Assembly: GCA_047651235.1 (NCBI GenBank)
Contig: CP178758.1
Location: 2,820,001 to 2,852,000 of the forward strand
Length of the DNA: 32,000 bases
Origin: Candidatus Electrothrix yaqonensis
Lineage (GTDB): Bacteria > Desulfobacterota > Desulfobulbia > Desulfobulbales > Desulfobulbaceae
Direction of reading: 5' to 3'
A program made the translations under genes and the position numbers. The notes below the pieces were generated by a model. The model saw nothing but the letters and a program-made list of their open reading frames with translations. It ran no database searches and was not told the origin of the DNA. Below, one piece after another: positions 2,433 to 26,072 of the stretch (position 1 is its first letter; each line of letters starts with the position of its first letter).

Positions 2433-4328
2433 TTGGCTGTGAAGCCTGACTTTGTTGAATATATCCGGAATCACGTTGTCCTCGGAGACGGTGCTCTCGG
2501 TTCCTATCTCTTTGAACGCGGGGTGGAACGGGGCAGGAATCTCGATCTGCTGAACGTGCAGGCGCCGGAGATGATTTTTGCTGCCCATGAGGAATATATT
2601 CGGGCTGGCAGTCAGCTGATCGAGACCAATACCTTTGGGGCGAACAGGTTTACCCTGCGGGAAGTCGGTGCTGAAGATCGGATGGAGGAGATCAACCGGA
2701 CCGGAGCCGAAATTGCCGTCAAGGCGGCCGGACACCAGGTCTATGTGGCTGGATCTGTGGGACCGACCGGGATCATCTTTCCCCGTGACGAGGAAGAATT
2801 CACTCTGGATGATCTCAGGGAGAACTTCAGGGCGCAGGTACGCGGACTGGCTGATGGCGGGGTTGATCTCCTGATTCTGGAGACCTTTTCCAGCCTTGAC
2901 GAGGTGCTGCTTGCCATAGAGGTTGCCCGGAGCGAGGTGCCGGATCTTCCTGTGATCGGCCAGATGGTCTTTCCGGCACGGGGCAGGACGGTACAGGGAA
3001 AGGACGCTCTTGCCTGCGGCCGGGAAATGCATGCTGCCGGTGCCGCTCTGGTGGGAACCAACTGCGGTCGCGGCAGTGATGCTATGATAACGGCAATCAG
3101 CAGAATGTCGCCGTTGGCAGGGCAGGGGATTCCGCTCTCTGCTTTTCCCAATGCCGGGATGCCGGAACTGGTGGGCCAGCGCACGATATATCCGGCGCAA
3201 CCGGGATATATGGCCAAGCGAGCCAGAGAGATGATCCGCAGCGGGGTACATCTTATCGGCGGCTGCTGCGGCACCACTCCGGCGCATATTCAGGAGTTCC
3301 GGACAGCGCTGAAGATCAGGCCGGTGCGGATTCAGGTGCGGGAAAAGGAAAGCAGAAAGAAGGTTAAGGAGGAGAAGAACAGAGAAGTACGGAACGGCGG
3401 TTTTCTGGATTCTCTCCGACCGGGCAGACTGCCGATTATCGTTGAACTTGATCCGCCCACCCATCTTGACCTTGAACCTGTTCTGACCGGCGCGGAACGG
3501 CTGGCAGAAGCCGGGGTGGACGCTATTTCCCTTGGAGAAAATCCTCTTGCCATCCTGCGGGCCGGAAATCTCGGCGTGGCCTCGCTGATCCGGCAGCGGA
3601 CAGGGCTGCAGACCATCCTGCACCAGACGGGCAGGGATCTGAATGCCTTGGCTCTGCAGTCCCGGATGATGGAAGCGCATCTGCTCGGTATTGAGGCGGT
3701 GCTGGCTGTTTCCGGCGATTCTGCCGCCAGTACGGATCAGCCGGGTGTCAGCGGGGTCTTTGATCTGCGCTCCTATGGACTGATCGGGATGCTGGACGGG
3801 TTGAACCGGGGGGTGAACATGGCCGGGCGGTCTCTGAAACAGCAGACGAATTTTTCCGTCGGCGCGGCCTTCAGCTTCCGGCCTTCCAACCCTGATCTGC
3901 AGATCAGACGCCTTGAGAAAAAAGCCGCGCTCGGTGCCTGCTTTGCCATGACCCAACCGCTTTTCTGCACTGATGAAATTGAACAGATGATAGAACTGGT
4001 CGGACATCTTGATCTGCTGATCTTTCCCGGTATTTTTCCGTTGATCTCCTCCCGCAATGCCGAGTTTATCCATAATGAGGTGCCGGGGATTTCCGTGCCT
4101 GATGAACTGCGGGCCAATCTGGCCCGTTTTAACCAGGTCGCTGACCAGCGTAAGGTTGCTCTGGAATATACGACCGGACTGGTTGAGAAAATTTCACCTT
4201 TTATTGATGGATTGTACCTGATCAGTCCGCTCAACAAATGGGACATTGTGCTTGATTTTGTTGTCCAGGCCCGTGCGGCAGGCTGGAAGGGTAGCGGTCG
4301 AGCTGACAGGCAGGAATCGGTTCGGTAA
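2433..4328 (+). CDS. bifunctional homocysteine S-methyltransferase / 5,10-methylenetetrahydrofolate reductase (YitJ-type fusion)
   Basis: The N-terminal ~300 aa is homocysteine-methyltransferase-like (LGDGALGSYL, ETNTFGAN, Zn-ligand cysteines in GTNCG and GGCCGTTPAHI). The C-terminal ~300 aa is MTHFR-like (IIVELDPP, ILHQTGRD, LAVSGD). The ORF track uses TTG at 2433. GTG at 2439 lies 7 nt after GGGAG and is an equally plausible start. Confidence 0.9.
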   Translation: MAVKPDFVEYIRNHVVLGDGALGSYLFERGVERGRNLDLLNVQAPEMIFAAHEEYIRAGSQLIETNTFGANRFTLREVGAEDRMEEINRTGAEIAVKAAGHQVYVAGSVGPTGIIFPRDEEEFTLDDLRENFRAQVRGLADGGVDLLILETFSSLDEVLLAIEVARSEVPDLPVIGQMVFPARGRTVQGKDALACGREMHAAGAALVGTNCGRGSDAMITAISRMSPLAGQGIPLSAFPNAGMPELVGQRTIYPAQPGYMAKRAREMIRSGVHLIGGCCGTTPAHIQEFRTALKIRPVRIQVREKESRKKVKEEKNREVRNGGFLDSLRPGRLPIIVELDPPTHLDLEPVLTGAERLAEAGVDAISLGENPLAILRAGNLGVASLIRQRTGLQTILHQTGRDLNALALQSRMMEAHLLGIEAVLAVSGDSAASTDQPGVSGVFDLRSYGLIGMLDGLNRGVNMAGRSLKQQTNFSVGAAFSFRPSNPDLQIRRLEKKAALGACFAMTQPLFCTDEIEQMIELVGHLDLLIFPGIFPLISSRNAEFIHNEVPGISVPDELRANLARFNQVADQRKVALEYTTGLVEKISPFIDGLYLISPLNKWDIVLDFVVQARAAGWKGSGRADRQESVR

Positions 4329-4385
4329 TATCCTCGCACACCTATTAGGTTTTTTAACAATACTCAACAAGTTACGGAGCTATCT

Positions 4386-5549
4386 ATGTCGAGTCATCTT
4401 TTTACCTCAGAATCTGTTTCCGAAGGCCATCCTGACAAGGTGGCTGATCAGATTTCAGATTCTATTCTGGACGCCATTCTGGAGCAGGATACCCATGCCC
4501 GTGTTGCCTGCGAGAGTCTGGTTACCACCGGATTGGCCATGATTGCCGGGGAAATCACCACGACTGCCTGGGTGGATATGCCGGAGATCGTCCGCCAGAC
4601 CATCCGGGGCATCGGTTATAATTCCTCGGACATGGGCTTTGACTGGCAGTCCTGCGCAGTCATGACCTCTATTGATAAACAGTCCCCGGATATTGCCCAG
4701 GGCGTTGATGAGGGAACCGGACTTGATCTGGACCAAGGAGCCGGGGATCAGGGCCTGATGTTCGGCTATGCCTGTGACGAGACCAGCGTACTCATGCCCA
4801 TGCCCATCACCTATGCTCATCGCTTGATGAAACGGCAGGCCGAGATACGGAAAAACGGCGTCCTGCCCTGGCTGCGTCCGGATGCCAAGAGTCAGGTGAC
4901 GATTCAGTATGAGGACAACGTGCCCAAGCGCATTGAGGCGGTGGTTGTGTCCAGTCAGCACAGTCCGGATGTCTCCTATGCCGATCTGAAGGAAGGGATT
5001 ATGGAGGAGATCGTCAAGCCAACCCTTCCTGCCGAGATGATTGATGCTGAGACCAAATATTTCATCAATCCAACCGGTCGTTTTGTCATCGGCGGCCCGG
5101 TGGGGGACTGCGGGGTGACCGGTCGTAAAATCATTGTGGATTCCTACGGCGGACGCGGTTCCCACGGCGGCGGCGCCTTTTCCGGCAAGGATCCCTCCAA
5201 GGTGGACCGTTCTTCCTCCTACATGGGACGCTACGTGGCCAAAAATATTGTTGCTGCCGGACTGGCCTCCGCTGTGGAGGTGCAGGTCGCTTATGCCATC
5301 GGCATTTCTCAGCCGGTTTCCATTAACGTCAACACCTTCGGCACCGGCAAGGTGTCTGAGGAACGGCTGGTGGAGCTGATCAGGGAGGTCTTTGATCTGC
5401 GGCCCAAGGCTATTATCCAGCAGCTCAACCTGCTGCGTCCCATCTTTCGTCAGACAGCGGCTTACGGTCATTTCGGCCGGGAGCTGCCCAATTTTACCTG
5501 GGAAAAGACAGATAAGGCCGAGGAACTGAAGGCTGCTGCGGGTATCTGA
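4386..5549 (+). CDS. metK: S-adenosylmethionine synthetase
   Basis: Classical MetK sequence: [52 protein letters not shown] lies upstream of the ATG. Confidence 0.97.
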
Positions 5550-5573
5550 TTTTTTGGTCATAAATTTTCTGCG

Positions 5574-5607
5574 TAGGGGCGATTCGCGAATCGCCCTTAC
5601 TTTTTTT
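5574..5607 (+). terminator. Rho-independent terminator after metK
   Basis: Perfect 20-nt palindrome GGGCGATTCG/CGAATCGCCC (5577-5596), extendable by flanking pairs, followed by T7 (5601-5607). Confidence 0.8.
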
Positions 5608-5649
5608 CAATAATCAATTTCGAGAATATCGAGCAACAGGAGTAACGCT

Positions 5650-6936
5650 GTGAGCGATTATAAAGTAAAAGATATGAGCCTTGCTGAATGGGGACGCAAG
5701 GAAATTGCCATTGCCGAGACTGAGATGCCCGGCCTGATGGCCCTACGGGAAGAGTACGGCAAAGACAAGCCCCTTAAAGGCGCCCGGATCGCAGGTTGTC
5801 TGCACATGACCATTCAGACCGCTGTGCTCATGGAAACCTTGGTGGAACTGGGGGCGGAACTGCGCTGGTCGTCCTGCAATATCTTTTCCACTCAGGATCA
5901 GGCAGCTGCTGCAATGGCAGAGGCCGGTATTCCTACCTTTGCCTGGAAGGGTGAAACCGAGGAGGAGTTCTGGTGGTGCATTGAGCAGACTATTTTCGGG
6001 CCGAACGATTGGCGCCCCAACATGATCCTAGATGATGGTGGTGATTTGACCCAGATCATGCATGAGAAGTACCCGGAGATGATGCAAGATATCCGAGGCA
6101 TCTCCGAAGAAACCACCACGGGTGTGCATCGGCTCAATGAGATGGCCCGTGACGGCAAGCTGCTCTGTCCGGCCATTAATGTCAATGATTCCGTTACTAA
6201 GTCAAAATTTGACAACCTCTACGGCTGCCGTGAGTCCCTGATTGACGGGATCAAACGGGCCACAGACGTGATGATTGCCGGAAAAAATGCGGTGGTTGTC
6301 GGCTACGGTGATGTGGGCAAGGGCTGCGCCCAGGCCCTGCGCGGTATGGGCGCGACAGTCTTTGTTACTGAGATCGATCCGATCTGCGCGCTGCAAGCCG
6401 CAATGGAAGGATACAAGGTTATCACTATGGAAGAAGCCGCGCCGGTGGGAGATATTTTCGTCACCTGTACGGGCAATCTGCAGGTAATCACAAGAGCGCA
6501 CATGGATGCGATGCAGGACCAGACCATTGTCTGCAATATTGGTCATTTTGACTCGGAGATCGACATTGCGGGCATCCGGGAGCTGGAATGGGAGAATATC
6601 AAACCGCAGGTGGATCATGTCATCTGGCCGGACGGCAAGCGGATTATTGTCCTGGCTGAAGGGCGGCTGGTCAATCTCGGCTGCGCAACCGGGCATCCCA
6701 GTTTTGTGATGAGTAACTCGTTCACCAACCAGGTTCTGGCCCAGATCGAACTATGGAATAATTCAGAAAACTATGAACATCAGGTGTATTTTCTGCCGAA
6801 AAAACTTGACGAGATGGTGGCCCGGCTGCATCTGCAGAAAATCAGCGCCCATCTGACCGTGCTCAATCCGGAGCAGGCGGAGTATATCGGGGTTGATGTT
6901 GAGGGGCCGTACAAACCGGATTATTATCGGTATTGA
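5650..6936 (+). CDS. ahcY: adenosylhomocysteinase
   Basis: GTG start 7 nt after AGGAG (5638-5642). Typical AhcY motifs: [22 protein letters not shown]-binding [34 protein letters not shown]-terminal YKPDYYRY. Confidence 0.97.
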
Positions 6937-7003
6937 TCCTCCTTGCTTCTGCAGCCCGCAGAAAGTCGGGACCAACGGCTGCTGTGGAAACGCAGCGGCA
7001 ACA

Positions 7004-7036
7004 GCGGGGCACAGGGGCTTTTTCCTTGTGCCCCGC
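7004..7036 (+). terminator. GC-rich hairpin downstream of ahcY (possible terminator, no 3' U tract)
   Basis: GCGGGGCACAGG (7004-7015) pairs with CCTTGTGCCCCGC (7024-7036) with one bulged T. The T run sits in the loop, not after the stem, so terminator function is uncertain. Confidence 0.3.
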
Positions 7037-7064
7037 TGTCTGCACTGTCTATATTCTTTGCAGT

Positions 7065-7082
7065 GTACTTAACTGTACTTAA
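7065..7082. repeat. tandem direct repeat GTACTTAA-CT-GTACTTAA upstream of the L,D-transpeptidase gene
   Basis: Two exact 8-mers with 10-bp periodicity, ~90 bp upstream of the ATG at 7169. This geometry fits a winged-helix response-regulator site, which is inference only. Confidence 0.25.
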
Positions 7083-7168
7083 AAAATCTTGTTTATTGTG
7101 ATATCCTTGTTCTAAGAGGGGACAGGTGTCTCTGTTCGGGATCCAACTTTACCCAGAATGAACGATCC

Positions 7169-9031
7169 ATGATTTTGCCGAGATTTTCTGCCGGATGTAT
7201 TGCTCTGCTCGCAGTATTATTACTGCTGTGCAGCTTTTCCGTGCAGGCATACATGGATCATGAGAGCGGATACAGGATGCAGGGCATTTCTGCACCAATC
7301 CCGGCAGGGATGATATCCGGAATACAGAAGGAGCTGGTCTGGATACTGAAAAATAATCCTGCTGTTCGGGTCGGCTTTGCTGCTCCGCAGGACGCATCAG
7401 TACCATCTGTACGGTTGAACAGTTTTTTGCTCAACCTGTATATGGAATATAGTTTTTATCCGTTCTGGGTAACAGAACATGGACCGGGCCGCAAGGCCCA
7501 TATCTTTGTCTCGGTTCTCCGCAGAGCAGGAGAAGAAGGACTGAATCCGGAAGACTATCGGACTGCTGCCCTGATAGATTTACTGCGGACCTCGGACGTC
7601 CGGAGTCTGGCCACGCTGGATATCATGCTTACTCTGGCCCTGCATGCCTATCTTTCCGATATACTGGAAGGGCGTGTTTTCCGGTCCCGGCCGATCCCTG
7701 ACTGGTTTTTTGCTGCCCGGACCAGGGAAGCCAGTCTTCCGAAGATGATTCGCCAAGCGCTGAACATTTATGATCTGCTTGCCTTTCTGAATCAACTGTC
7801 CCCCGGATATACGGAATATCACCTACTGAAAAAACTGCTCGCCGAATACCGTCAGCTGGCGACAAAGGGAGGATGGCCTGCTGTTCCGCCCGGAACAACG
7901 CTCAGGCCCGGTATGCAGGACTCCCGCCTCGCCGTACTGGCGGAGCGTCTGTTCATCACCGGTGATCTGCAGGATTTTTCCGTCATTCCCCCTCCTCCCG
8001 GCATTGCAGCTCTGCGCCCGGCTTTTCCTGAACCGCTGTCTGACAGGGTCATAGCAGCACAACTGGTGAGGCCTCCCTGTATGCGCCGCAGCCCGGTCCT
8101 TACGCCCAGCCGTCCGGTGTACGGCAGAACGTTGCTCAGGGCGGTAAAACATTTTCAGCGGCGCTATAATCTGAATCCGGACGGTGCAGTCGGAAAAAAA
8201 ACGCTGGAAGCCCTGAATCTGCCGGTACAGGAGCATATCGACAGGATTCTTCTGAACCTGGAACGCTGGCGCTGGCTGCCGAATAATGCCGAAGGACGCC
8301 GTATTCTGGTCAATATTGCCGGATTCCGTCTGACAGGAAGAAAAGATGATCAGGTTGAGATTGAAATGCCGGTCGTTGTCGGCAAGGTGAAGCACAAGAC
8401 ACCGGTTTTTTCCCATACCATGACCTATATTGAGGTCAATCCGTACTGGAATATTCCGAAAACCATTGCCCGGAACGAAATTGCTGTCAAAGTGCAGGAA
8501 AATTCTGATTATCTGCAGAAGGAGCGTATTCGTGTTTTTGACGGCTGGCAGGAGGGAGCACCTGAGATTCCTCCGGCCAGTATCGACTGGGCAACCATAG
8601 GCGAAGAGCTTGATCAGTTCCGTCTGCGTCAGGAACCGGGGCCGGAGAATGCCTTGGGCACGATCAAGTTTATGTTTCCCAACAACAAAAACATATACAT
8701 GCATGATACGCCCAGTCGCAATCTGTTCAGGCGCATCAGACGTGCATACAGTCACGGATGTATCAGGTTGGCCAGGCCCCTGGAGCTTGCCCGCTATATT
8801 TTATCTCATGATCAACAGCCAGTGACCGGCCAGCAGCTGCACCAGCTGATCGATAGCAAAAAAAGAAAAATATTTATCCTCAATCATCCGCTGCCGGTGC
8901 ATATTATGTACTGGACAGTACGGGTGGACCGCAGAACCGGGACAGCTTATTTTTATGATGATATTTACGGTTGTGATGCGCGGCTGGGCAGCGTACTGTT
9001 TGCCGGAAGGGATCGGCGCAGATATCCATAG
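7169..9031 (+). CDS. L,D-transpeptidase family protein (YcbB/LdtD-like) with peptidoglycan-binding domain
   Basis: Signal peptide MILPRFSAGCIALLAVLLLLCSFSVQA. PG-binding motif VKHFQRRYNLNPDGAVGKKTLEALN. YkuD catalytic motif IYMHDTP...YSHGCIRL. Length (620 aa) is similar to E. coli YcbB. Confidence 0.88.
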   Translation: MILPRFSAGCIALLAVLLLLCSFSVQAYMDHESGYRMQGISAPIPAGMISGIQKELVWILKNNPAVRVGFAAPQDASVPSVRLNSFLLNLYMEYSFYPFWVTEHGPGRKAHIFVSVLRRAGEEGLNPEDYRTAALIDLLRTSDVRSLATLDIMLTLALHAYLSDILEGRVFRSRPIPDWFFAARTREASLPKMIRQALNIYDLLAFLNQLSPGYTEYHLLKKLLAEYRQLATKGGWPAVPPGTTLRPGMQDSRLAVLAERLFITGDLQDFSVIPPPPGIAALRPAFPEPLSDRVIAAQLVRPPCMRRSPVLTPSRPVYGRTLLRAVKHFQRRYNLNPDGAVGKKTLEALNLPVQEHIDRILLNLERWRWLPNNAEGRRILVNIAGFRLTGRKDDQVEIEMPVVVGKVKHKTPVFSHTMTYIEVNPYWNIPKTIARNEIAVKVQENSDYLQKERIRVFDGWQEGAPEIPPASIDWATIGEELDQFRLRQEPGPENALGTIKFMFPNNKNIYMHDTPSRNLFRRIRRAYSHGCIRLARPLELARYILSHDQQPVTGQQLHQLIDSKKRKIFILNHPLPVHIMYWTVRVDRRTGTAYFYDDIYGCDARLGSVLFAGRDRRRYP

Positions 9032-11401: not shown

Positions 11402-11636
11402 CTATTAGTGCTCTTTAAGTATCACCAAGGTCTATGAATATACGATAAAATTACTTCGGGATACCTGAAAGGGAAAATAAAAAATATTGTACAATTTTGG
11501 CTATACTCAGAACAGCTTGAAAATCTGTTCTCCTTCTCTGCGCTCCTGCCGGTATTTCTTGAAGCCTTATCCGCACTGTTATATAGTGCTCTTTTATTGA
11601 AATTACCACGCCCTTTCCATCTTTTTCCAGGATACC

Positions 11637-14330
11637 ATGAATAAAAAAATCAAATCAGACCAAAGCCCGGCCAAATACGACCTGCCCAAAGCCTATGAAT
11701 TCGAGGAGGTCGAACAACGCTGGTATGAATACTGGCTTGAGCATAAAACCTTCAGTGCAGAAATAGAACAAGGCAGGGACGCCTTTTCCATCGTCATTCC
11801 TCCGCCCAATGTCACCGGCGTGCTGCACATCGGCCATGCCCTGAACAACACCCTCCAGGATCTGCTGACCCGCTACCACCGGATGAAAGGCGATAACACC
11901 CTCTGGGTTCCGGGTACGGATCACGCCGGTATTGCCACCCAGAATGTGGTGGAGCGGCAGCTCGCCACGGAAAAGCAGACCCGCCATGACCTAGGCCGGG
12001 AGAAATTCATTGAGCGGGTCTGGCAGTGGCGGACCGATAAGGGCGGCACTATTATCAACCAGCTCAAGCGGATGGGGGCCTCCTGCGACTGGGACCGCGA
12101 ACGTTTCACGATGGATGAAGGCCTGTCCAAGGCGGTGCGCGAAGTTTTTGTCCGTCTGTATGATGAAGGGCTGATCTATAAGGGCGATTACATCGTCAAC
12201 TGGTGCCCGCGCTGCCTGACCGCTCTGGCTGATGATGAGGTAGAGCACGATCCCACCAAGGGCAAGCTCTACCATCTCCGCTACCCCTATGCGGACGGCT
12301 CCGGTTCCGTAGTCATCGCCACCACCCGGCCAGAAACCATGCTCGGCGACACAGCCGTGGCTGTCCATCCGGAAGACGAGCGCTACGCTGGTCTGCAGGA
12401 TATAGGCATCCGCCTGCCTATCGTTGACCGGACCATCCCGGTGGTCCTGGATCATCATGTCCAACGCGATTTCGGGACCGGTGCCCTTAAGGTCACGCCC
12501 TCCCATGACCGGGATGACTACGAGATCGGTCTGCGTCACGACCTGGATCGGGTCAAGATCATGGATGACCACGGCATCATGAACGAGCAGGCCGGGAAAT
12601 ACGCAGGCATGGACCGCTTTGCCTGCCGGGAGCAGATTGTCAAGGATCTGGACGAGCTGAGCTTTCTCAATAAGATTGAAGACTATGACCATGCAGTGGG
12701 CAAGTGCTACCGCTGCGCCACCGTGGTCGAGCCGACCACCTCCAAACAGTGGTTTGTTTCCGTCCGTCCTTTGGCGGACAAGGCTGTGGCTGCCGTGCGC
12801 GAGGGCCGGATCAAGCTCTACCCGGACACTTGGTACAATACCTTCTATGCCTGGATGGACAACATCCGCGACTGGTGCATCTCCCGCCAGATCTGGTGGG
12901 GTCACCGCATCCCGGCCTGGACCTGTCTGGAATGCGGCAAGTTAATCGTTGCTGTCGATGATCCGGGCTTCTGCTCAAGATGCGGTAAAATACATCTTGA
13001 ACAGGAAACCGATGTCCTGGACACCTGGTTTTCCTCGGCCCTGTGGCCCTTCTCCACCCTAGGTTGGCCCGAACAAACTAAGGAGATAGAGACCTTTTAT
13101 CCGACTTCAGTGCTGATTACCAGCTTTGATATCCTCTTTTTCTGGGTGGCCCGGATGATGATGATGGGCCTGCATTTCATGGACGAGGTACCCTTTCACG
13201 ATGTCTATTTGCATGCCTTAGTGCGCGACAAGCACGGCAAAAAGATGTCCAAATCCACCGGCAACGTGATTGATCCGGTGGACACGATCGCCCAGTACGG
13301 CACCGATGCCTTCCGCTTCACCCTGACCGCCTTTGCCGCCCAAGGCCGGGAAATCAAGATGGATGAGGAGCGCATTGACGGCTACCGCCGCTTTATCAAC
13401 AAGCTGTGGAATGCGGCCCGTTTTGCTCAGATGCACATCAAGGACAGTGATCCGGGCATCGTGGCAGTAACAGAGAAGCCTGCCGAACTCGCCCTGCCCC
13501 ACCGTTGGATACTCAGCCGCACCGATGCCACCATCCGCGACGTACGCAAGGCTCTGGACGGCTACGATTTCAACCTGATCGCCTCAGCCATCTACCAGTT
13601 TACCTGGCATGAGTTCTGCGACTGGTATGTGGAGTGGATCAAGGCAGATCTGTTCTCTGATGACGAGACAAAGCGCGAACAGGCCAGAGGCGTGTTGCTC
13701 TCTGTGCTGGAAAACATCTTGAAAATGCTCCATCCTGTCTGCCCCTTTGTCACTGAGGAGATCTGGAGCCAGTTGCCCGGCGAGCGCGGTACCATCATGC
13801 TGGAGGCTTTTCCCAAGGCCAACCCGGCTTGGCAGGATACTGAGGCAGAGCAGTCTATGCAACTGCTCATGGATGTGATCTCTGCTACCCGCACCATCCG
13901 GAGCGAGGCTGATGTCCATCCGAGCGCCAAGGTTCATGCCTCAATCATCTGCGCCGATGCGGGCAAACGTGATCTGCTGCATGACTTTAACGATTCGCTC
14001 TGCTCCATGACCCGCTCTGAATCTCTCTCAATCATGGAGGCTGGCACCGTTCCTGACGATGCCGGGCATATCCTTACTGAAAGCGGGGTCGAGGTTTTTG
14101 TTCCGCTGAAGGACCTGATTGACGTGGAAGCGGAAATGGAGAAGCTAGCCCGCGAACGCAAGAAGATTGAGCAGGAACTCAAGCGGGTGCAGGGTAAGCT
14201 GGGGAATGCAAAATTCCTGAGCAATGCTCCTGATGTGGTGATAGAGAAGGAAAAGGGCAAACAGGCGGAGCTGGAGAATCGGCTGGCTAAGAATGAAGAG
14301 TCGAAGGCACGGCTGATGAAGTTGGGTTAA
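11637..14330 (+). CDS. valS: valine--tRNA ligase
   Basis: HIGH motif (PPNVTGVLHIGHA), KMSKS motif (KKMSKSTGN), editing-domain and anticodon-binding regions, C-terminal coiled coil. 897 aa. Confidence 0.97.
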   Translation: MNKKIKSDQSPAKYDLPKAYEFEEVEQRWYEYWLEHKTFSAEIEQGRDAFSIVIPPPNVTGVLHIGHALNNTLQDLLTRYHRMKGDNTLWVPGTDHAGIATQNVVERQLATEKQTRHDLGREKFIERVWQWRTDKGGTIINQLKRMGASCDWDRERFTMDEGLSKAVREVFVRLYDEGLIYKGDYIVNWCPRCLTALADDEVEHDPTKGKLYHLRYPYADGSGSVVIATTRPETMLGDTAVAVHPEDERYAGLQDIGIRLPIVDRTIPVVLDHHVQRDFGTGALKVTPSHDRDDYEIGLRHDLDRVKIMDDHGIMNEQAGKYAGMDRFACREQIVKDLDELSFLNKIEDYDHAVGKCYRCATVVEPTTSKQWFVSVRPLADKAVAAVREGRIKLYPDTWYNTFYAWMDNIRDWCISRQIWWGHRIPAWTCLECGKLIVAVDDPGFCSRCGKIHLEQETDVLDTWFSSALWPFSTLGWPEQTKEIETFYPTSVLITSFDILFFWVARMMMMGLHFMDEVPFHDVYLHALVRDKHGKKMSKSTGNVIDPVDTIAQYGTDAFRFTLTAFAAQGREIKMDEERIDGYRRFINKLWNAARFAQMHIKDSDPGIVAVTEKPAELALPHRWILSRTDATIRDVRKALDGYDFNLIASAIYQFTWHEFCDWYVEWIKADLFSDDETKREQARGVLLSVLENILKMLHPVCPFVTEEIWSQLPGERGTIMLEAFPKANPAWQDTEAEQSMQLLMDVISATRTIRSEADVHPSAKVHASIICADAGKRDLLHDFNDSLCSMTRSESLSIMEAGTVPDDAGHILTESGVEVFVPLKDLIDVEAEMEKLARERKKIEQELKRVQGKLGNAKFLSNAPDVVIEKEKGKQAELENRLAKNEESKARLMKLG

Positions 14331-14477
14331 ACGAGATTGATTGAACTACCTCCCTGACTTTGTTGTCGGGGAGGTTCCATGTACCTGAGCAACAGAGATT
14401 GAGTGATGATTGAACAGCTTGAAATCAAAAACTTTAGAGGAATTGAGCAGTTTAAAATTGATAATATTGGTCAGGTT
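14258..14477 (+). repeat. direct repeat copy A (valS 3' end + hairpin + 5' end of ATPase gene)
   Basis: Aligns with 16160-16381. It includes a 43-nt identical core GCAACAGAGATTGAGTGATGATTGAACAGCTTGAAATCAAAAA (14389-14431 = 16291-16333). Overall roughly three quarters identical by eye. Confidence 0.9.
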
Positions 14478-15515
14478 AACCTCCTGGTCGGCACAAACAA
14501 CAGTGGAAAAACATCAATTTTAGAGGCTATTCGTTTGCTCAAATCAGAAGGAAATTCATATGATTTCCTTTCAGTCCTGCTTCAACGAGGTGAAAGAATT
14601 CAAAAAGAATCCGATAGACGTCAAATAGACGGGGACTTATGCAGGCTTTTTTATGGTTTTGAACTGAATTCAACTTCCAATTTTTCCATTAAGGGAGGAG
14701 GCGAAAAGCAGAACGAGGGAATATCAGCTTCCGTGAAAGAAATTCCTGTCCAGTCTGAAGTTTTTGAAAAAGACCCTGACTTTTCAGGCCAGTATCAATT
14801 TGATATTCGTTGGAAAAAAGGAAACGAAGAAATTCATCAAGATATTCCTGTCAGCTTGGACGGAGGACTGTCCTATGATTATATAAGAAGGAAACTCCGT
14901 CTTAAGGCAGGGCCAACAAAAGAGAACAATCTTGAATTTGTACCAACCTCTTCATTGTCATCTCATGAAGTTATCGCTTTATTTGACAGAGTAATCCTGA
15001 CACCTGATGAAGAACTTGTACTGGATGCATTAAGAATCATTGAGCCTGATATTACTCGTCTTGCTTCGCTTGGAGGAGGAGCTCGATATTATCCTTTACG
15101 TTCGGGAGACTATGACCGTGGCGGTCTTTTTGTCAAAAGCAGCAAATGGGAAAAAAGAATTCCCATCGGAAGTTTTGGTGACGGTATCTGGCGGTTGCTG
15201 GGACTGATTTTATCCTTGGTCGGAGCAAAAAACGGCACCTTGCTGGTTGATGAAATCGATACCGGCCTACACCACACCGTTATGTCCAAGATGTGGAAGC
15301 TGATTTGCATCACCGCAAAAAAACTCAACGTGCAAGTCTTTGCCACCACCCACAGCAGCGACTGCTGGAAAACGCTGGCCGACAATGCGGTTGAAGATGA
15401 ATTTGCCGACATGCCCATCCGTATCCATCGGATTGATAAAAACAAAATCCGACCGGAAACCTTTACCAATACGGAGATGCACCTTGCCCTAGATCAGGAA
15501 ATAGAGGTTCGCTAG
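14403..15515 (+). CDS. ABC/OLD-type AAA ATPase (AAA_15/AAA_21-like)
   Basis: N-terminal IEQLEIKNFRGI, Walker A GTNNSGKTS, Walker B/D-loop TLLVDEIDTGLH, H-loop FATTHSSD. Start is GTG 14403 or ATG 14406. Confidence 0.85.
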   Translation: MMIEQLEIKNFRGIEQFKIDNIGQVNLLVGTNNSGKTSILEAIRLLKSEGNSYDFLSVLLQRGERIQKESDRRQIDGDLCRLFYGFELNSTSNFSIKGGGEKQNEGISASVKEIPVQSEVFEKDPDFSGQYQFDIRWKKGNEEIHQDIPVSLDGGLSYDYIRRKLRLKAGPTKENNLEFVPTSSLSSHEVIALFDRVILTPDEELVLDALRIIEPDITRLASLGGGARYYPLRSGDYDRGGLFVKSSKWEKRIPIGSFGDGIWRLLGLILSLVGAKNGTLLVDEIDTGLHHTVMSKMWKLICITAKKLNVQVFATTHSSDCWKTLADNAVEDEFADMPIRIHRIDKNKIRPETFTNTEMHLALDQEIEVR

Positions 15516-15516
15516 G

Positions 15517-16200
15517 ATGGCCCGTCAACATGAGAAGGTTCTTTTGGTTGAAGGAGCGGAAGACCAGCGGGTTATTCCTGAGCTTGTTGAGGCAAATGGA
15601 ATTCAGTGGGGCGAAAAAGAAAAAGACTGGATTGTTCAGATTAAATCCCTGAACGGTGTAGAAAAACTTTTGGATAAAGAACGGATCAATGTCCAGCTGA
15701 AGGCGTCAGGATTGAAAATTCTCGGCATCATCCTTGATGCGGACGATGAGCCTGCTGACCGTTGGCAGAGCATACGCAACTGTCTGCTTGAACGATATCC
15801 GGATATTCCGGAAGAATTACCCGCAACCGGCCTGATCCATCCCGGTGAAATCAAAATCGGCGTTTGGATGATGCCGGACAATCAACAACAGGGAATGCTG
15901 GAGACCTTTCTCCAATTTCTCCTACCTGAAGACGACAAAGAGCTTTGGGAGTTTACCGAGCAGAGTTGCAGGCAGGCCACCAACTACGGAGCGTCTTACA
16001 AAGAACCCCATCTGGATAAAGCAAAAATCCATACTTGGCTGGCATGGCAGAATCCTCCGGGACGGCAGCTGCATAACGCGGTCATGGAACGCATTCTCTC
16101 GCCGACTTCGCCGCAGGCAGCCTCTTTCATGCAGTGGTTTCAGAAATTATTTGAGGTTACAGCAACAGGAGATGCCGGAGACCCGGCTGGTGAAAAATGA
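15517..16200 (+). CDS. small Toprim-like protein (DUF3226/DUF4276/DUF4435-type), partner of the ATPase
   Basis: The ATG is 1 nt after the ATPase stop. KVLLVEGAEDQRVIPELV (Toprim Glu) and KILGIILDADDEP (DxD) lie ~60 aa apart. Family assignment is from motif memory, not from a search. Confidence 0.6.
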   Translation: MARQHEKVLLVEGAEDQRVIPELVEANGIQWGEKEKDWIVQIKSLNGVEKLLDKERINVQLKASGLKILGIILDADDEPADRWQSIRNCLLERYPDIPEELPATGLIHPGEIKIGVWMMPDNQQQGMLETFLQFLLPEDDKELWEFTEQSCRQATNYGASYKEPHLDKAKIHTWLAWQNPPGRQLHNAVMERILSPTSPQAASFMQWFQKLFEVTATGDAGDPAGEK

Positions 16201-16381
16201 AGAATCGAAGGCGAGGCTGGGCAAGTTGGGATAAGCGGGGTTGGTTGAAATGCCTCCTTGGCGTTTTGTCGGGAGGCGCTGTGCATCTTTGCAACAGAGA
16301 TTGAGTGATGATTGAACAGCTTGAAATCAAAAATTTCAGAGGATTTGCTGACTACAAGATTGATGATGTAGGGCAGATCGG
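16160..16381 (+). repeat. direct repeat copy B (relic valS 3' end + hairpin + relic ATPase 5' end)
   Basis: In the valS-like frame, 16184-16234 reads RLVKNEESKARLGKLG* versus the valS C-terminus RLAKNEESKARLMKLG*. A conserved hairpin lies at 16252-16277. The ATPase-like start is at 16305/16308. Confidence 0.9.
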
Positions 16382-16439
16382 TGTCACTCAGGCGCCATTA
16401 TTGCACGAAAATATGCTTTGCGCCTGCATGTCCTGTTAG
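16305..16439 (+). pseudogene. 5' remnant of a second ABC/OLD-type ATPase gene (truncated before Walker A)
   Basis: Encodes MIEQLEIKNFRGFADYKIDDVGQI, near-identical to the first 24 aa of the 14403 ATPase. It then diverges (GVTQAPLLHENMLCACMSC*) and stops at 16437-16439. Confidence 0.75.
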
Positions 16440-16462
16440 TGATATAACTGATTGAATTGGAC

Positions 16463-16495
16463 AAAAAATCCTCCCAACAGAAAACTGTCGGGAGG
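16463..16495 (-). terminator. Rho-independent terminator of the dsbC-like gene
   Basis: On the minus strand, the CCTCCC/GGGAGG stem (16470-16475 / 16490-16495) is followed by ATTTTTTGT. Confidence 0.75.
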
Positions 16496-16537
16496 AAAAA
16501 TCTGCAAATATGGAAAACGCCTTTTCAGCCTGTTCTA

Positions 16538-17353
16538 TTATTTCGGCGTCTCCTTCAGCATCTTCACGATCTCATCCGCATCTCTGTAACCGGGGATAAC
16601 CCGGCCATCCGGCATAATCAGGGTCGGAGTCGAACCTATATATAGTTCCTTGCCCAAGGTGATATTTTTCTCCACAGCATCGTTTTCGCATTCCGGTTCC
16701 GGCAGAGACTTTCCAGCAAGACTCTCGTCCAGCAGGCTCAGGGCCTTGGCATTATCTCCGCCGATTTTTGCGCAGACAATAGTCTGTGCCTTCTGTTTGG
16801 CATGAGGATGCATGATCAGGGGGAACATCTTGACCAGAAAGGCAATATCAGGGTGATCCTCAACCACTTTTTTCATAACCGGGTGCAGCTTGCGGCAGAA
16901 TTTGCACTCCGGGTCGTCAAACACGATGATTTGATGTGCAGCATCCGCTTTACCGAGCAGCAACGCATCCTCCAGAGGAATCCGGGAACGGTCCACTGTA
17001 TTCATTTTAACAAAACTGCTCTTGGTTACGTTCTCGTCACTTTCCAGTTTCAGCACGTTGCCGCTGATCAGATAGCTTTTTGAAAAGTCAAGATAGAGCG
17101 GCACTTTCTGGGGTGTTCCCTGTTTATTGCGGACAACGGCTTCCACATCCCAGAGACCGGGCACCTCGCTACGTTTGACTTCGAGCACTTCGCTGACCTT
17201 TCCCGTGAGCAGCTCAGCAACTTCTTCTTTGCTGACTGCATGGCAGTCCCGGCAGTCACCGGCACCGCAGCCTCCTTTCTGAAAGGCTGACGCCGGGGAG
17301 CCTGCAAGCAGGGCGAGCAGGAAAAACGGAAGAATAACTGTATGAAGTTTCAT
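16538..17353 (-). CDS. periplasmic thiol:disulfide interchange protein, DsbC/DsbG-like
   Basis: Signal peptide MKLHTVILPFFLLALLAGSPASA. N-terminal dimerisation-type domain. Thioredoxin fold with active site DDPECKFCRKLHP and the cis-Pro region GSTPTLIMPDG. Confidence 0.85.
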   Translation of the reverse strand: MKLHTVILPFFLLALLAGSPASAFQKGGCGAGDCRDCHAVSKEEVAELLTGKVSEVLEVKRSEVPGLWDVEAVVRNKQGTPQKVPLYLDFSKSYLISGNVLKLESDENVTKSSFVKMNTVDRSRIPLEDALLLGKADAAHQIIVFDDPECKFCRKLHPVMKKVVEDHPDIAFLVKMFPLIMHPHAKQKAQTIVCAKIGGDNAKALSLLDESLAGKSLPEPECENDAVEKNITLGKELYIGSTPTLIMPDGRVIPGYRDADEIVKMLKETPK

Positions 17354-18640: not shown

Positions 18641-19480
18641 ATGGATACAGAAAGCTTTTTGCAGGAAAATCAAGAAAATCTCAACAACATCCTCCGACCC
18701 TTTCAAAAAGAGATCAACCGTGGTCAACGGCTGGCTGATTTTCTCAAACAATGTGTGCGTTGCTTGGGTCGTAATGATTTTCTGCAACTGGAAGAGCTGT
18801 TAAACTCCAAGATAGCGCAGAACGTGGAAGACGAAGATGCCTTGAGCGAGTGCGGGCCTCTTTTCCAGACCCTGCGGGAATATGCCGGGGAACAGGTGGA
18901 GAAATATCGCTTTGCGTTTATCGAAGACCTTTCCCGGCTGGCCGAAGAGGCCGAGTTGCCCATTGAAATTGATTTCCCCCGTTTCACCGTGCTCAAAGGC
19001 ATTGAGGGGGAGATTGATTTCAGTAAGCGTACCACCTCCATCAATAAAAAAGTCCTCAAATCCATTGATCCCCGCCGCATTGTCACTGCAGCCCTACGCT
19101 GGAAAAAGCAGCTCTATGATGGTCCCTTTGATCCCCAGACCTTTGTAGACGGTCTGTACGCAACCTATACAAAGATCAATCAACAGGAGGATGCAGCACC
19201 AGGGCATCCAGTGGGGATTCAGCAGTTTTACCTGGAATATGTGATTTCCCTGCAAAGCAAAGCATTTTTCATCAATATGGATAAGAGCAAATTTCGGGGT
19301 TACAGCCTGGAGCAGTTCGGTGTGGATCTGTGGCGATATTTTGAAGCAGGTATCGGCGGCACCTCTGATGGTATGATGTTGCAGCTGCGGCCAGGGCGCA
19401 ACAATTCCCTGTGGCTGATCGACAGTGATGGTGAACGCCGCCAGATTACCGGAATTTCCTTTCAGGAGAGAGCGATATGA
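18641..19480 (+). CDS. hypothetical protein (gene A of three-gene NTPase operon), no recognisable motif
   Basis: 279-aa ORF with an AG-rich RBS-like stretch (GAAAGAGAG) upstream. Its stop overlaps the next start (ATGA at 19477-19480). Confidence 0.7.
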   Translation: MDTESFLQENQENLNNILRPFQKEINRGQRLADFLKQCVRCLGRNDFLQLEELLNSKIAQNVEDEDALSECGPLFQTLREYAGEQVEKYRFAFIEDLSRLAEEAELPIEIDFPRFTVLKGIEGEIDFSKRTTSINKKVLKSIDPRRIVTAALRWKKQLYDGPFDPQTFVDGLYATYTKINQQEDAAPGHPVGIQQFYLEYVISLQSKAFFINMDKSKFRGYSLEQFGVDLWRYFEAGIGGTSDGMMLQLRPGRNNSLWLIDSDGERRQITGISFQERAI

Positions 19481-20766
19481 AGAGTATGGAAGAGCTGGGG
19501 CAGCTAAAGCCCTTCCAGGCCCGCTCTATTATTGAGGAGTTACGCAAAGGCAGTGTTCCGGCGGAGTATGTCCCGTTTTTCACGGTGGGCCGCGATAATT
19601 GGCTCACCTTTATCGAAGATGACCTGGCCAATTACATTGCCGAAGGCGGGGCCAAAGTCCGCTTTCTCAGTGGCGATTACGGGGACGGTAAGACCCATTT
19701 CATGTCAGTCATCCAACACCTTGCCCTGCAGGAAGGTTTTGGTGTCTCCTTTGTGGTCCTGACCCGGGAAACACCGATTCATAAGTTTGAGGCGGTCTAC
19801 CAAGCCATTACCCAACAGCTTCATGGTCGTTTTGAGGGCATCGGTATCCGCAATCTCTTACGGCAATGGTTGGAGACTCTGGCTGAAAAAGAAGAACCCT
19901 CCCTTGCCCAACTGGCTGATATGGCAGAGACCCTACGCAACCTTCCGGGTATGAACATCAACTTTGCCAACGCCCTCACTGCTCTGGCCCATAATCGCTT
20001 TGTGCCCTTGGAAGAGGGCGAGGAGCAGGAAGAACGAGATACTGCGCAGGAAATTATCTTTCACTGGTTTGAGGGCGGCAAGGTGACCAAGCGCGAGTTG
20101 AAACCATTCGGAATTTTTGAGGTGGTCAACAAATCCAACAGCAAGCAATTGCTCAATTCCCTGAATGTTTTTCTGCGCCATTTTGGACACAAGGGCTTGA
20201 TCCTGTTGCTTGATGAACTGGAAACCGTCATTGCCCAGTCTGCTTCCATGCGCAACGCAGCCTATGAAAATGTGCGCCTGCTCATCGACAACTCCGAACA
20301 TGCGGAATATTTTCATATCTTTTTCTCCATTATCCCTGACGTGCTGCTCTCGGAAAAGGGCTTTAAATCCTATGATGCCCTGTGGAGCCGGGTACGCAGC
20401 ATCGGCCAGAAGAAACAACTCAACTACCGGGGCGTGCTGATTGATCTGCATCGCACCCCCTTGACCAGTCAGGAGCTGATAGAGCTGGGCCGCTGTTTAC
20501 GCCGGATTCACGAGATATCCTATCGCTGGAAAGCTGAGGATTCAGTGCCGGACAAGCTGCTGGAGGATGTCTGCACAAATCAGGAAAAGATGGGCCTGCT
20601 CAGTGAGGTGCGCCTATTCATCAAACAGCTCATCAGCATTCTTGATATGGCGGAACAGGGCGAAACACCGACGGAAGAGCTTGATCTTGAGCAGCACGTC
20701 GTGTCCAGCCAGCAGGAAATGGATCAGGAAAAAGTGGAACAACTGCAACCGAGCTGGGATAAGTAA
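19477..20766 (+). CDS. BrxD/DUF2791-type P-loop NTPase (BREX ATP-binding-domain family), gene B
   Basis: N-terminal ARSIIEELRKGSVPAEYVPFFTVGRD, Walker A GDYGDGKTH, Walker B GLILLLDELE. Family call is from motif memory. Confidence 0.8.
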   Translation: MKSMEELGQLKPFQARSIIEELRKGSVPAEYVPFFTVGRDNWLTFIEDDLANYIAEGGAKVRFLSGDYGDGKTHFMSVIQHLALQEGFGVSFVVLTRETPIHKFEAVYQAITQQLHGRFEGIGIRNLLRQWLETLAEKEEPSLAQLADMAETLRNLPGMNINFANALTALAHNRFVPLEEGEEQEERDTAQEIIFHWFEGGKVTKRELKPFGIFEVVNKSNSKQLLNSLNVFLRHFGHKGLILLLDELETVIAQSASMRNAAYENVRLLIDNSEHAEYFHIFFSIIPDVLLSEKGFKSYDALWSRVRSIGQKKQLNYRGVLIDLHRTPLTSQELIELGRCLRRIHEISYRWKAEDSVPDKLLEDVCTNQEKMGLLSEVRLFIKQLISILDMAEQGETPTEELDLEQHVVSSQQEMDQEKVEQLQPSWDK

Positions 20767-20769
20767 GCC

Positions 20770-22014
20770 ATGAGTAAGGATATGCCAGCCTTTGTCCAGC
20801 TCCTGGAAAAGGCAGATAATTTTACCTTGCGACGGGCCGTGGAACGGTTGCGGGAGGGCCTGTTTGATCCTTTTGGGGTGAGCCTGCTCACTGCCCGTGA
20901 GAGCCAGTTGAACAAGGTTTTTGATCAGGGTGCGCAGGATGTAGCCAAAAACAAGAGCACCCATCTCTGCGTCTGCGGCTCCTATGGTCAGGGAAAATCC
21001 CATAGCCTGACCTATCTGCGCCAACGGGCCCTGCAACAGGGTTTTGCAGTCAGCTCGATCAATCTTGACCCCAGGGAAGTGCCCCTGCACGACTTTCACC
21101 AGGTCTATCGTGCTCTGGTGAACCAGATTGCCTTTCCTGACAGCGATGACTCGCTGGTCAAGGTCTGGGAGCAATGGACCAAAGAAGGGTATAAACAACA
21201 GCTCAAAGGCAAAAAGGCTGATCCCCTCTCAGTTATTCCTGACTGTATGCCCCATGTCTTCAAAGCCGTGCTTACGGCCCTGGCGAACGATAATATGCAG
21301 CTTTCCAGGCGGCAAAAAGGCTTGAAAAAACATGCTGCTTTCCGGCCCCGGTAATTTCCCTGGATTCTGACCAATGCCCTGAACGGAAATTCGCCGCCCG
21401 TGGTTCGTCTCAGACAGGCCCTGAAATATCGGGAGGTTTCCTTTTACAAGGAGCAATCCCTGGTGTGCAAGGGCTGGGAGCCGTATTTTGCTCTGGTCAG
21501 AGGACTGGGACTCATGTTTCAGCAGATGGGTTATAAGGGTTGGGTGCTGCTGTTTGATGAGGCAGAAGCCATTGCCCAGACCCGAATTAATCTGCGCCGC
21601 AAAAGCTACGCCATTTTACAACGCTTTTTTTGCCCGGATACGCCGTTAAACGGCCTTTATCCGGTCTTTTCCTTTACCGATGATTTTTTTTCCACGGTCA
21701 AAGGGGAGGATTACGACCGGGTGGATACTCGCGGTGAAACGGAGCAACCCTATTTCGCGGAAAACTATGCCAGGGCCTGGCGTCGCCTCAATATCCATAA
21801 TCTGCACGATCTGTCCAGTCTGGAGTGGCAAGCTCTGGCTGAAAAGTTGATTTATGTACATGGCAAAGCCTATGCCTGGCAAGCGGAACCGAAGCAACTC
21901 CAAAGACAGCTGGCTGCCACGCTCAAGGAAACAGGTTTGCGTGAGGCCCGTTTGAAGATAAAGGCGTTGGTTAATCAATTGGATTTTGTTCAGCAGGGGG
22001 TTGTGCTGGGGTGA
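20770..22014 (+). pseudogene. second BrxD/DUF2791-type P-loop NTPase (gene C), interrupted by one in-frame TAA at 21352-21354
   Basis: ORFs 20770-21354 and 21400-22014 are in the same frame, and the 45 nt between them are open (FPWILTNALNGNSPP). Walker A GSYGQGKSH lies before the stop and Walker B WVLLFDEAE after it. Paralogous to gene B. Confidence 0.75.
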
Positions 22015-25460: not shown

Positions 25461-26072
25461 ATGAAAATAGAACAGATAGTCGGAGAAATATGGATTTACC
25501 TGGTTAAAAATATAGATTGGTTATTTAGCGGGACTGGTGTATTTCTTATTGCTTACCTTGGTTCTTTGATTGCTTCAAATTTTCTCAAGCAAAGTCGTCA
25601 AGTAAACGATACAATCAGCTCTTCGGTAGTCCCTGAAGACGTTGACAATCTTTCCAGACTTCTTGTTCAAAATTTTCAAGTATTAAATCGTTATTATTCG
25701 GAAAATCTTTCCCAGGCACGCACAAGTACAATGGCAAGTCTTTCTATTGCGATTCTTGGATTTCTCGTAATCCTCGCTGGCGTACTAATAACTTTTATAG
25801 GAGATCAGGTGGTTTTGGGTACAGTTAGTTCTGGCGCAGGAATTGTATCCGAAGCAGCAGCGTTACTTTTTTTTAAACAAAACAAGTTGTTTCAAGAGCA
25901 AATGCAAAATTCTCTAAAGAAGCTTGTTTCAACCCAATATCTAATGACCTCTGTTGCTCTTGCTCGTGAACTTCCAGAAGAACAACGGTCAAAAGAACTT
26001 GTATCTATAAATGACCACTTGAGGCAATTAATGGACGTTCTTCATCAGGAGGACATTGTTCGTACAAAATAA
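25461..26072 (+). CDS. hypothetical membrane protein in a low-GC islet
   Basis: A 203-aa ORF in clearly AT-richer DNA, where long ORFs are unlikely by chance. Hydrophobic segments WLFSGTGVFLIAYLGSLIA, MASLSIAILGFLVILAGVLITFI and VSSGAGIVSEAAALLFF. No obvious RBS. Confidence 0.6.
   Translation: MKIEQIVGEIWIYLVKNIDWLFSGTGVFLIAYLGSLIASNFLKQSRQVNDTISSSVVPEDVDNLSRLLVQNFQVLNRYYSENLSQARTSTMASLSIAILGFLVILAGVLITFIGDQVVLGTVSSGAGIVSEAAALLFFKQNKLFQEQMQNSLKKLVSTQYLMTSVALARELPEEQRSKELVSINDHLRQLMDVLHQEDIVRTK

Follow-up and report, generated by a model that had tools for sequence, protein, structure and literature searches.

A probable tandem duplication scar and a later allelic replacement at a valS-linked putative defence cassette in Candidatus Electrothrix yaqonensis

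How did the end of a tRNA synthetase gene, the hairpin behind it, and the beginning of the next gene come to stand twice, as diverged direct repeats, in one cable-bacterial locus? The locus lies within 32,000 nt of the genome of Candidatus Electrothrix yaqonensis (GCA_047651235.1, contig CP178758.1, positions 2,820,001 to 2,852,000, forward strand); this whole stretch is called here the window, and coordinates are counted from its first letter. In it, valS is followed by a cassette of two genes, encoding an ABC/SMC-like ATPase and a DUF3226 protein, and behind the cassette lies a second, truncated copy of the valS end and the ATPase start (Table 1). The original prediction, made from the letters of the window, explained this arrangement by one invasion of a resident valS-ATPase locus by a diverged allele. 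The explanation preferred here, with a probability of roughly 0.6, is that a tandem duplication left a scar, which was eroded separately in each lineage, and that the first copy of the repeat (copy 1) was replaced later.

The repeat and the junction behind the DUF3226 gene

The two copies align end to end, as foreseen for diverged direct repeats of about 220 bp. Local alignment gives 166 identical columns out of 215 (77.2%) with two 1-nt gaps and a score of 181, compared with 19.8 +/- 2.3 for shuffled sequences; the blastn E value is 2.7e-43. The right part (14369-14474 and 16271-16376) was returned ungapped by a repeat search, at 79%. Counted by part, 55/71 positions agree in the valS tail, 55/69 in the first 69 nt of the ATPase gene, and 69% in the intergenic segment. 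The predicted exact core of 43 nt over the start region is also present. It is the sole exact word of at least 10 nt common to both copies; identity outside it is 71.5%, and the chance of a perfect 43-nt run is, by a rough estimate, ~1e-4.

Copy 2 is a relic of both genes. Its valS tail, translated as QQEMPETRLVKNEESKARLGKLG and a stop, is found by tblastn with ValS (E 0.004), and the ATPase stump is found by tblastn at E values of 4e-7 to 8e-9. The open reading frame (ORF) 16305-16439 is present, its start by homology being the ATG at 16308, and the N-terminus GFADYKIDDVGQ resembles the consensus of the ATPase family; homology breaks off before Walker A, at ~16376-16379, in agreement with the prediction. 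In annotation, this ORF is to be treated as a pseudogene stump. The first 69 nt of the stump are 86% identical to Electrothrix sp. Rat3 (locus L086), 86% to the related locus L178, and 80% to copy 1. The last 14 valS codons of copy 2 differ from copy 1 by five synonymous and two non-synonymous changes, one of the latter being the Rat3 allele, and the first 10 codons of the relic carry five non-synonymous changes, including a helix-breaking L-to-P. No further ATPase or DUF3226 relics were found elsewhere in the window, and an exact 38-nt core searched in viral contigs gave no match.

The second copy also alters the gene in front of it. As predicted, the last codons of the DUF3226 gene (the Toprim-like gene of the prediction) are read out of frame from the valS relic: the native part ends with ...LFEV at 16155, and after FEV the reading continues as TATGDAGDPAGEK to a stop (codons 214-227), in a frame other than that of valS. 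These last 14 codons of the annotated gene are not native. It might be suspected that the loci of two co-occurring strains were joined in tandem during assembly, which would be in line with the identity of copy 1 to an allele from other samples and with the 43-nt exact word, which breaks short-read contigs when it lies in repeats. However, the same-sample short-read contig L001 is 100% identical over 14402-16320 and spans DUF3226, the junction, and copy 2, another (L093) spans the stump-to-dsbC junction, and the same architecture occurs in unrelated assemblies. Since both junctions are found in the separately assembled L001 and L093, the arrangement is no assembly chimera, and this hardly credible explanation was rejected.

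Comparison with relatives indicates that the junction between DUF3226 and the valS tail is not private to the window genome. The blastn match at the junction stops at 16158 for the related locus L082 and at 16166 for Rat3. The native end of the DUF3226 protein is FEV-stop in cassettes linked to metG (L088, L090, and L091), and FEV(T/A)R-stop in L082, L178, P0123, P0126, P0129, and the second relic of Rat3. In five lineages (window, P0124, P0171/L176, P0122/L174-L175, and unit 1 of Rat3), this stop is lost and the valS-tail relic is read instead, giving the ends ATTGEAGEPAS in P0124, ATTGKAGEPTS in P0171 (Electrothrix sp. GM3_4), and VATGDTGG... in P0122 (L174/L175). The junction DNA, GAGGTyrC/ArCAACAGG, is the same in the window, L176 (GM3_4), L086 (Rat3), and L174, and a CTG-to-CCG change inside the relic is common to the window, GM3_4, and L174. 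The Rat3 relic has indels, yet its resemblance to valS tails is significant (1 to 17 of 2000 shuffles). The relic of GM3_4 continues through the hairpin to a partial ribosome-binding region of the lost second ATPase, followed by a SpoU gene on the minus strand (SpoU(-)); compared with copy 1, its tail shows six changes in the last 14 codons, all of them synonymous. A microhomology (AACAGG / CAGGC) in both parental sequences is suggested by eye only, from GCAAA(A)CAGG after the native DUF3226 stop and GGGCAAACAGG in valS, together with a loss of CCGCTG.

A shared junction could also be produced by repeated site-specific insertion, that is, by tandem accretion of a small integrative element with a target ~72 nt before the valS stop and a replacement tail, and not by common descent. 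The same join occurs in lineages with DUF3226 proteins merely 59-83% identical, the unit of GM3_4 lies with its tail away from valS, the relic tails look recently functional, and other cable bacteria have the cassette behind a second tRNA synthetase gene, metG. Elements that integrate at the 3' end of a gene and bring a replacement end leave an attL/attR-type duplication, and the window locus is similar to this in having the live gene end, then the element, then a displaced copy of the gene end at the far side. In contrast to such integration, the repeat includes the start of the element's first gene, and the far copy adjoins remains of a second unit, not native downstream DNA. The unit encodes no integrase, transposase or recombinase, the neighbouring ORFs gave no recombinase domain, and no conserved core site is evident beyond the short AACAGG-like microhomology. 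Moreover, the derived substitutions common to the relics point to one origin, and no tail duplication was found at the metG-linked cassettes, with their native FEV-stop end. We consider this alternative quite improbable.

The hairpin reported for both copies was recovered by folding, with 11 pairs in copy 1 and ~10 pairs in copy 2; the covariation claimed for it, one A-U to G-C change, is weak evidence with two sequences. The valS terminators of locus L002, a Desulfobulbaceae metagenome-assembled genome, and of Rat3 have the same CC..CTGA-loop-CGGGG arms followed by a T-run, which is lost in both window copies. The hairpin at 14348-14375 is accordingly described here as a decayed valS terminator, as its arms indicate, rather than a special recombination signal, and read-through from valS into the cassette would be possible. 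Hairpins of the CCTCCC...GGGAGG type occur three times in the 32 kb, all at the valS/cassette locus, with 0.43 expected. The third one (16469-16496) may be a further homologue of the valS hairpin, another terminator remnant. A search for a third repeat copy around it gave merely a 10-nt arm match, the similarity of the flanks being weak (16/500, 61/2000, and 10/2000 shuffles) and not significant.

The replaced tract from valS into the ATPase gene

In comparison with L082, the window has nine mismatches in 13820-14093 and none in 14094-15418 (1325 nt), and identity outside this tract is ~83-84%, both in valS (11700-13800) and in 15419-16158. The change from ~84% to 97-100% and back to ~84% is sharp, with breakpoints at 13819/13820 and 15418/15419, both in conserved sequence, which is the pattern of a mosaic import. 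The tract reaches from 500 nt before the end of valS to ATPase codon 338 and includes copy 1, which is identical to L082 throughout. On these alignments, 13820-15418 is shown to be a double-crossover homologous replacement by an L082-like allele. Within the tract, valS is 88.2% identical to Rat3; outside it, the corresponding valS values are 88.6% for L082 and 83.3% for the window. Since the likeness of the tract to Rat3 matches that of L082 and not that of the window, the window genome was likely the recipient. The right-hand breakpoint falls where the ATPase gene is conserved, towards its 3' end, and the exchange thus swapped the protein's variable middle. As copy 1 was overwritten by the donor allele, the 23% divergence between the copies would be largely divergence between lineages, and copy 2, untouched by the exchange, looks like the older resident allele.

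The extent of the tract bears on the possibility of a recent private event. On this view, DNA of a diverged relative, circular or linear and with the valS tail, the hairpin, the ATPase, and DUF3226 on it, would have been inserted before a resident cassette, whether by a single crossover or by two joins, one homologous and one illegitimate, and the resident ATPase would have been deleted. Copy 1 indeed lies on DNA that another lineage shares at 98-100% identity, most of the differences in the last 14 valS codons are synonymous, the 43-nt core could be the crossover point, and a circularised unit would bring exactly the DUF3226-to-tail junction that is seen. However, the identical tract ends at 15418, inside the ATPase gene, and the 740 nt from there to the junction are ~84% identical to L082, so the import falls short of the junction. 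A crossover in the core would give a hybrid copy 1, but copy 1 is of the L082 type on both sides of the core. The junction, moreover, already exists in other lineages, as DNA in GM3_4, Rat3, and L174/L175 and as a protein signature in P0124 and P0171. We regard a recent private event as unlikely.

What holds of the invasion proposed in the original prediction is the relic of a second valS-linked unit and the position of copy 1 on DNA of a diverged lineage. The duplication is not the scar of that invasion: the relatives argue against one recent invasion with an illegitimate right junction, and the imported DNA ends ~740 nt before the junction. The prediction had itself named an old tandem paralogue in related genomes as the finding that would speak against it. 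The relatives show this in a weaker form, with eroded second units and no intact second ATPase.

A proposed tandem origin of the repeat

In its head-to-tail unit of 1.9 kb, its new junction, at which the end of one gene meets the interior of another, and its second copy reduced to a stump, the window locus is like a tandem duplication scar. The two copies are direct and ordered, with a novel junction between the units, and remains of a second unit are found in Rat3 and GM3_4. Unlike in usual scars, the window copies are 23% diverged by later foreign overwriting, and the junction is common to several lineages, therefore the scar would be old and partly refreshed.

It is proposed that the process began in a cable-bacterial clade with the ATPase and DUF3226 cassette directly behind valS and its terminator hairpin. 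The 1.9-kb unit, which begins 72 nt upstream of the valS stop and ends at DUF3226 codon 213/214, would have been repeated in tandem at an earlier time, by in-situ duplication or by integration of a circularised unit; the same junction would result from either, and it would fuse DUF3226, out of frame, to the copy of the valS tail. The second unit would then have been eroded independently in each lineage, at different points. In the window genome, this would have left the valS tail, the hairpin, and 24 ATPase codons, cut at ~16377 by a rearrangement bringing the dsbC side; in GM3_4, a partial ribosome-binding region would have survived besides the tail and the hairpin; and in Rat3, the tail would have decayed, with a decarboxylase gene inserted and 212 nt left from the end of a second DUF3226. 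L082 and L178 have a single unit with the native end, and in them the tandem may never have been present or may have collapsed. SpoU(-), TSCPD, and GGDEF/EAL genes follow the units of L082 and L178, and SpoU(-) also follows that of GM3_4. The recent step is the replacement of the 1.6-kb tract by crossovers within valS and within the 3' part of the ATPase gene, where this gene is conserved; copy 1 is thereby the allele of the donor lineage, and copy 2 would be the older resident one.

Several points weigh against this sequence of events. Each lineage is represented by one genome, mostly in short contigs, and the junction could have become common to them by horizontal transfer of the DUF3226 3' end together with the relic, not by vertical descent. 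The unit of GM3_4 is preceded by a TPR gene and not by valS, requiring at least one extra rearrangement or a movement of the unit. For an old pseudogene, the valS frame is unexpectedly well kept in the relic tails, the all-synonymous changes of GM3_4 being the example, and the 43-nt core, identical between a foreign and a resident copy, is unexplained by descent alone. The assignment of the window genome as the recipient comes from a single outgroup comparison. The kept tails and the core would both be accounted for by gene conversion, with the live valS-ATPase region 1.9 kb away as its source. A moving unit that integrates by homology, to which we give little weight, would also explain them, and with them the position of the GM3_4 unit away from valS.

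Table 1. Features of the valS-cassette locus in window coordinates.
Feature	Position	Strand	Description
valS, valyl-tRNA synthetase, 897 aa	11637..14330	+	Pfam tRNA-synt_1 (1e-143), Anticodon_1, Val_tRNA-synt_C; left anchor of the locus
Exchanged tract common to L082	13820..15418	+	sliding identity and mismatch list; holds copy 1 and ATPase codons 1-338 with the hypervariable middle
Repeat copy 1 (functional)	14260..14474	+	last 24 valS codons, 75-nt spacer with hairpin, first 23 ATPase codons
Hairpin 1	14348..14375	+	ACCTCCCTGAC...GTCGGGGAGGT; 11 pairs, -23.8 kcal/mol; homologue of the valS intrinsic terminator without a T-run
Identical segment (43-nt core)	14389..14431	+	ribosome-binding region and ATPase codons 1-9; equals 16291-16333
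ATPase, ABC/SMC-like, 369 aa from ATG	14406..15515	+	Pfam AAA_15 (2.7e-27), AAA_21 (1.2e-19)
DUF3226 protein, 227 aa	15517..16200	+	native part to 16155; codons 214-227 from the valS-tail relic
Unit-to-unit junction	16156..16163	+	GAGGTTAC / AGCAACAGG; DUF3226 homology of relatives ends, valS homology begins
Repeat copy 2 (relic)	16164..16376	+	valS tail relic 16164-16234, hairpin 2 16252-16277, core 16291-16333, ATPase stump from 16308
Second-ATPase stump	16308..16439	+	MIEQLEIKNFRGFADYKIDDVGQI...; homology to ~16376-16379, before Walker A; frame continues to the stop at 16439
Post-breakpoint sequence	16377..16468		right end of the conserved locus in the window genome
Third hairpin	16469..16496	-	CCTCCC...TGTCGGGAGG; T-run; terminator of the dsbC-like gene (terminator scan)
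DsbC-like thiol:disulfide isomerase	16538..17353	-	right neighbour

The cassette, its surroundings, and related systems

The two cassette genes stand 1 nt apart and match an adjacent pair of PADLOC models over their full length, PDC-M38A for the ATPase (1.1e-83) and PDC-M38B for the DUF3226 protein (6.9e-70), which makes the cassette a putative anti-phage locus of the candidate system PDC-M38, related to AbiL and PARIS. A literature search found no paper mentioning PDC-M38 or DUF3226. The ATPase also matches the AbiLi (3e-55) and AriA (7e-28) models. PARIS consists of AriA, an ABC ATPase, and AriB, a DUF4435 Toprim nuclease (PMC9122126, PMC11464382), and is defined by AAA_15/AAA_21 together with DUF4435 (PF14491) (PMC9122126). 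The window cassette is similar to PARIS and AbiL in that an AAA_15/AAA_21 ATPase gene and the gene of a small partner behind it form a two-gene module, with AbiLi and AriA models matching the ATPase. In contrast to PARIS, the partner is a DUF3226 protein, in which DUF4435 was not detected with Pfam and no AriB model matched in PADLOC. By its domains, the cassette is considered PARIS-like in layout and not a member of PARIS.

The Pfam DUF3226 model is fully covered by residues 7-213 of the protein. A match to OLD-like Toprim stays below the threshold (E 0.015, 16 bits, compared with a cut-off of 23), and a search of the PDB by sequence gave no significant match. The AlphaFold2 model is of moderate quality (mean predicted local distance difference test, pLDDT, 71.6); Foldseek found no PDB match to it at E <= 0.001, with a DnaG primase domain at E 0.08. 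The family has invariant E12, D16, D74, and D121-like columns. In the ATPase family, aligned homologues agree well at residues 1-40 (column identity 0.78-0.90) and 241-340 (0.74-0.92), and little at 101-180 (0.25-0.30). The ATPase and its homologues P0001-P0057 have near-invariant ends and a hypervariable middle (residues ~45-240), and their N-termini fall into at least two subtypes (MIT/EQLEIKNFRGFSEYKI... and MIKKLEINKFRGFKKYQIDNIGQI...). Such variability fits a sensor on which diversifying selection acts.

The closest homologues of both proteins belong to cable bacteria, Candidatus Electrothrix and Electronema, and the window ValS is 90% identical at the amino acid level to those of Desulfobulbaceae S24.Bin023 and Electrothrix sp. 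Rat3. The claim that the valS 3' flank is prone to recombination is supported by these relatives, in which the flank appears variable: empty, with the cassette, or with extra inserted genes. In L002 (ValS 90% identical), a canonical terminator stands behind valS and the cassette is absent; the locus shares no flanks with that of the window and gives the empty state without synteny. In L082, valS is followed by the cassette as a single unit with the native end, then SpoU(-), TSCPD, and GGDEF/EAL. L178 is organised in the same way, with an additional gene of 335 aa between valS and the ATPase and a paralogue upstream of valS. In L086 (Rat3), valS and the cassette are followed by a pyridoxal-dependent decarboxylase gene and a second DUF3226 3' end, which terminates in FEVTR-stop, like L082.

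Several further observations concern these loci. In Rat3, a 212-nt direct repeat of the DUF3226 3' end (11541-11749 and 13138-13349, 86%) flanks the decarboxylase gene (11851-13188), and in L174/L175 only the first part of this gene is kept after the same relic. The paralogous genes of L178 (903-1700 and 4819-5826, ~80% identical in nucleotides, 265 and 335 aa) flank valS as direct repeats, and the terminator hairpin has been displaced by the copy that was inserted in front of the cassette, behind valS. Their products have no Pfam match and look, by eye, like Rpn/YhgA-type recombination-promoting nucleases. In L082 (7065-9925 of a 43-kb contig from the European Nucleotide Archive), valS is called as three ORFs of 572, 228, and 157 aa, which reflects either frameshift errors of the assembly or a disrupted valS.

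The concept of defence hotspots flanked by core genes comes from P2/P4 elements (PMC9122126). The window locus is like such a hotspot in that a defence-type cassette adjoins an essential gene, that the flank content differs among relatives (empty in L002, the cassette in L082, an added Rpn-like gene in L178, an added decarboxylase gene in Rat3), and that a 1.3-kb tract is 100% identical between genomes otherwise ~84% identical. It differs in that the right crossover lies inside the defence gene, so that the variable middle of the ATPase was swapped and not the whole cassette. The hotspot concept applies generally, beyond P2/P4 elements.

The window genome itself has housekeeping genes upstream of the locus, namely lon, metK, ahcY, an L,D-transpeptidase gene, and phoU. 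On the right, 16377-16468 shows no similarity to the locus of any relative, and in no relative was the DsbC-like gene found beside the locus. Further on, at 18641-22014, lies a row of BrxC/BrxD-type ATPase genes, composed of a gene for a 279-aa protein without assignment, an intact 429-aa BrxC/D-like gene, and a second one apparently split into ORFs of 194 and 204 aa; this row right of the breakpoint suggests a decayed defence island. A 203-aa protein encoded at 25461-26072 contains a CyanoTRADDas_TM domain (cyanobacterial TRADD-N-associated 2-TM, 5e-15), a domain of the conflict-system type in Desulfobulbaceae.

The most unusual side result is the link of the cassette to valS or metG in cable bacteria. 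In L088, L090, and L091 (Electrothrix GW3-4, E. aestuarii, and Electronema halotolerans), it stands 62-67 nt behind metG, with DUF3226 proteins 75-82% identical in amino acids; the segments compared are 3977-7757, 3978-7747, and 3971-7684, respectively, with 11637-16200 in the window. Among 80 metagenomic valS loci, all distant (72% aa or less), none had a cassette behind valS, therefore the synthetase linkage is specific to cable bacteria. Elsewhere no synthetase link is seen: in Desulfonema magnum, the cassette lies within a restriction/defence island, and on small plasmids, mostly of Acinetobacter, there are distant DUF3226 homologues, several of them adjoining an annotated ATPase. That two class I synthetase genes became fixed left neighbours by chance is unlikely. 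It could be imagined, as a long shot, that the 1.9-kb unit is a recombinase-free, circularisable module that travels between lineages and re-inserts by homology at the 3' ends of essential tRNA synthetase genes (valS in some cable bacteria and metG in others), with a functional linkage. If so, the linkage might serve expression by read-through from the synthetase gene, the terminator of which lacks its T-run in the window, or it might tie a PARIS-like nuclease to tRNA charging.

As a whole, the locus adds a new and well-resolved case of processes already known, namely a probable tandem duplication scar and allelic exchange at a defence locus. It provides a dated example of how a putative defence gene may diversify, by recombination anchored in valS and in the conserved 3' part of the ATPase gene, which swaps the hypervariable middle of the ATPase alone and leaves old duplication scars alongside. 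A fixed tRNA synthetase neighbour is unexpected for a module found otherwise in defence islands or on small plasmids, and co-transcription or a tRNA-related role of the cassette could be tested.

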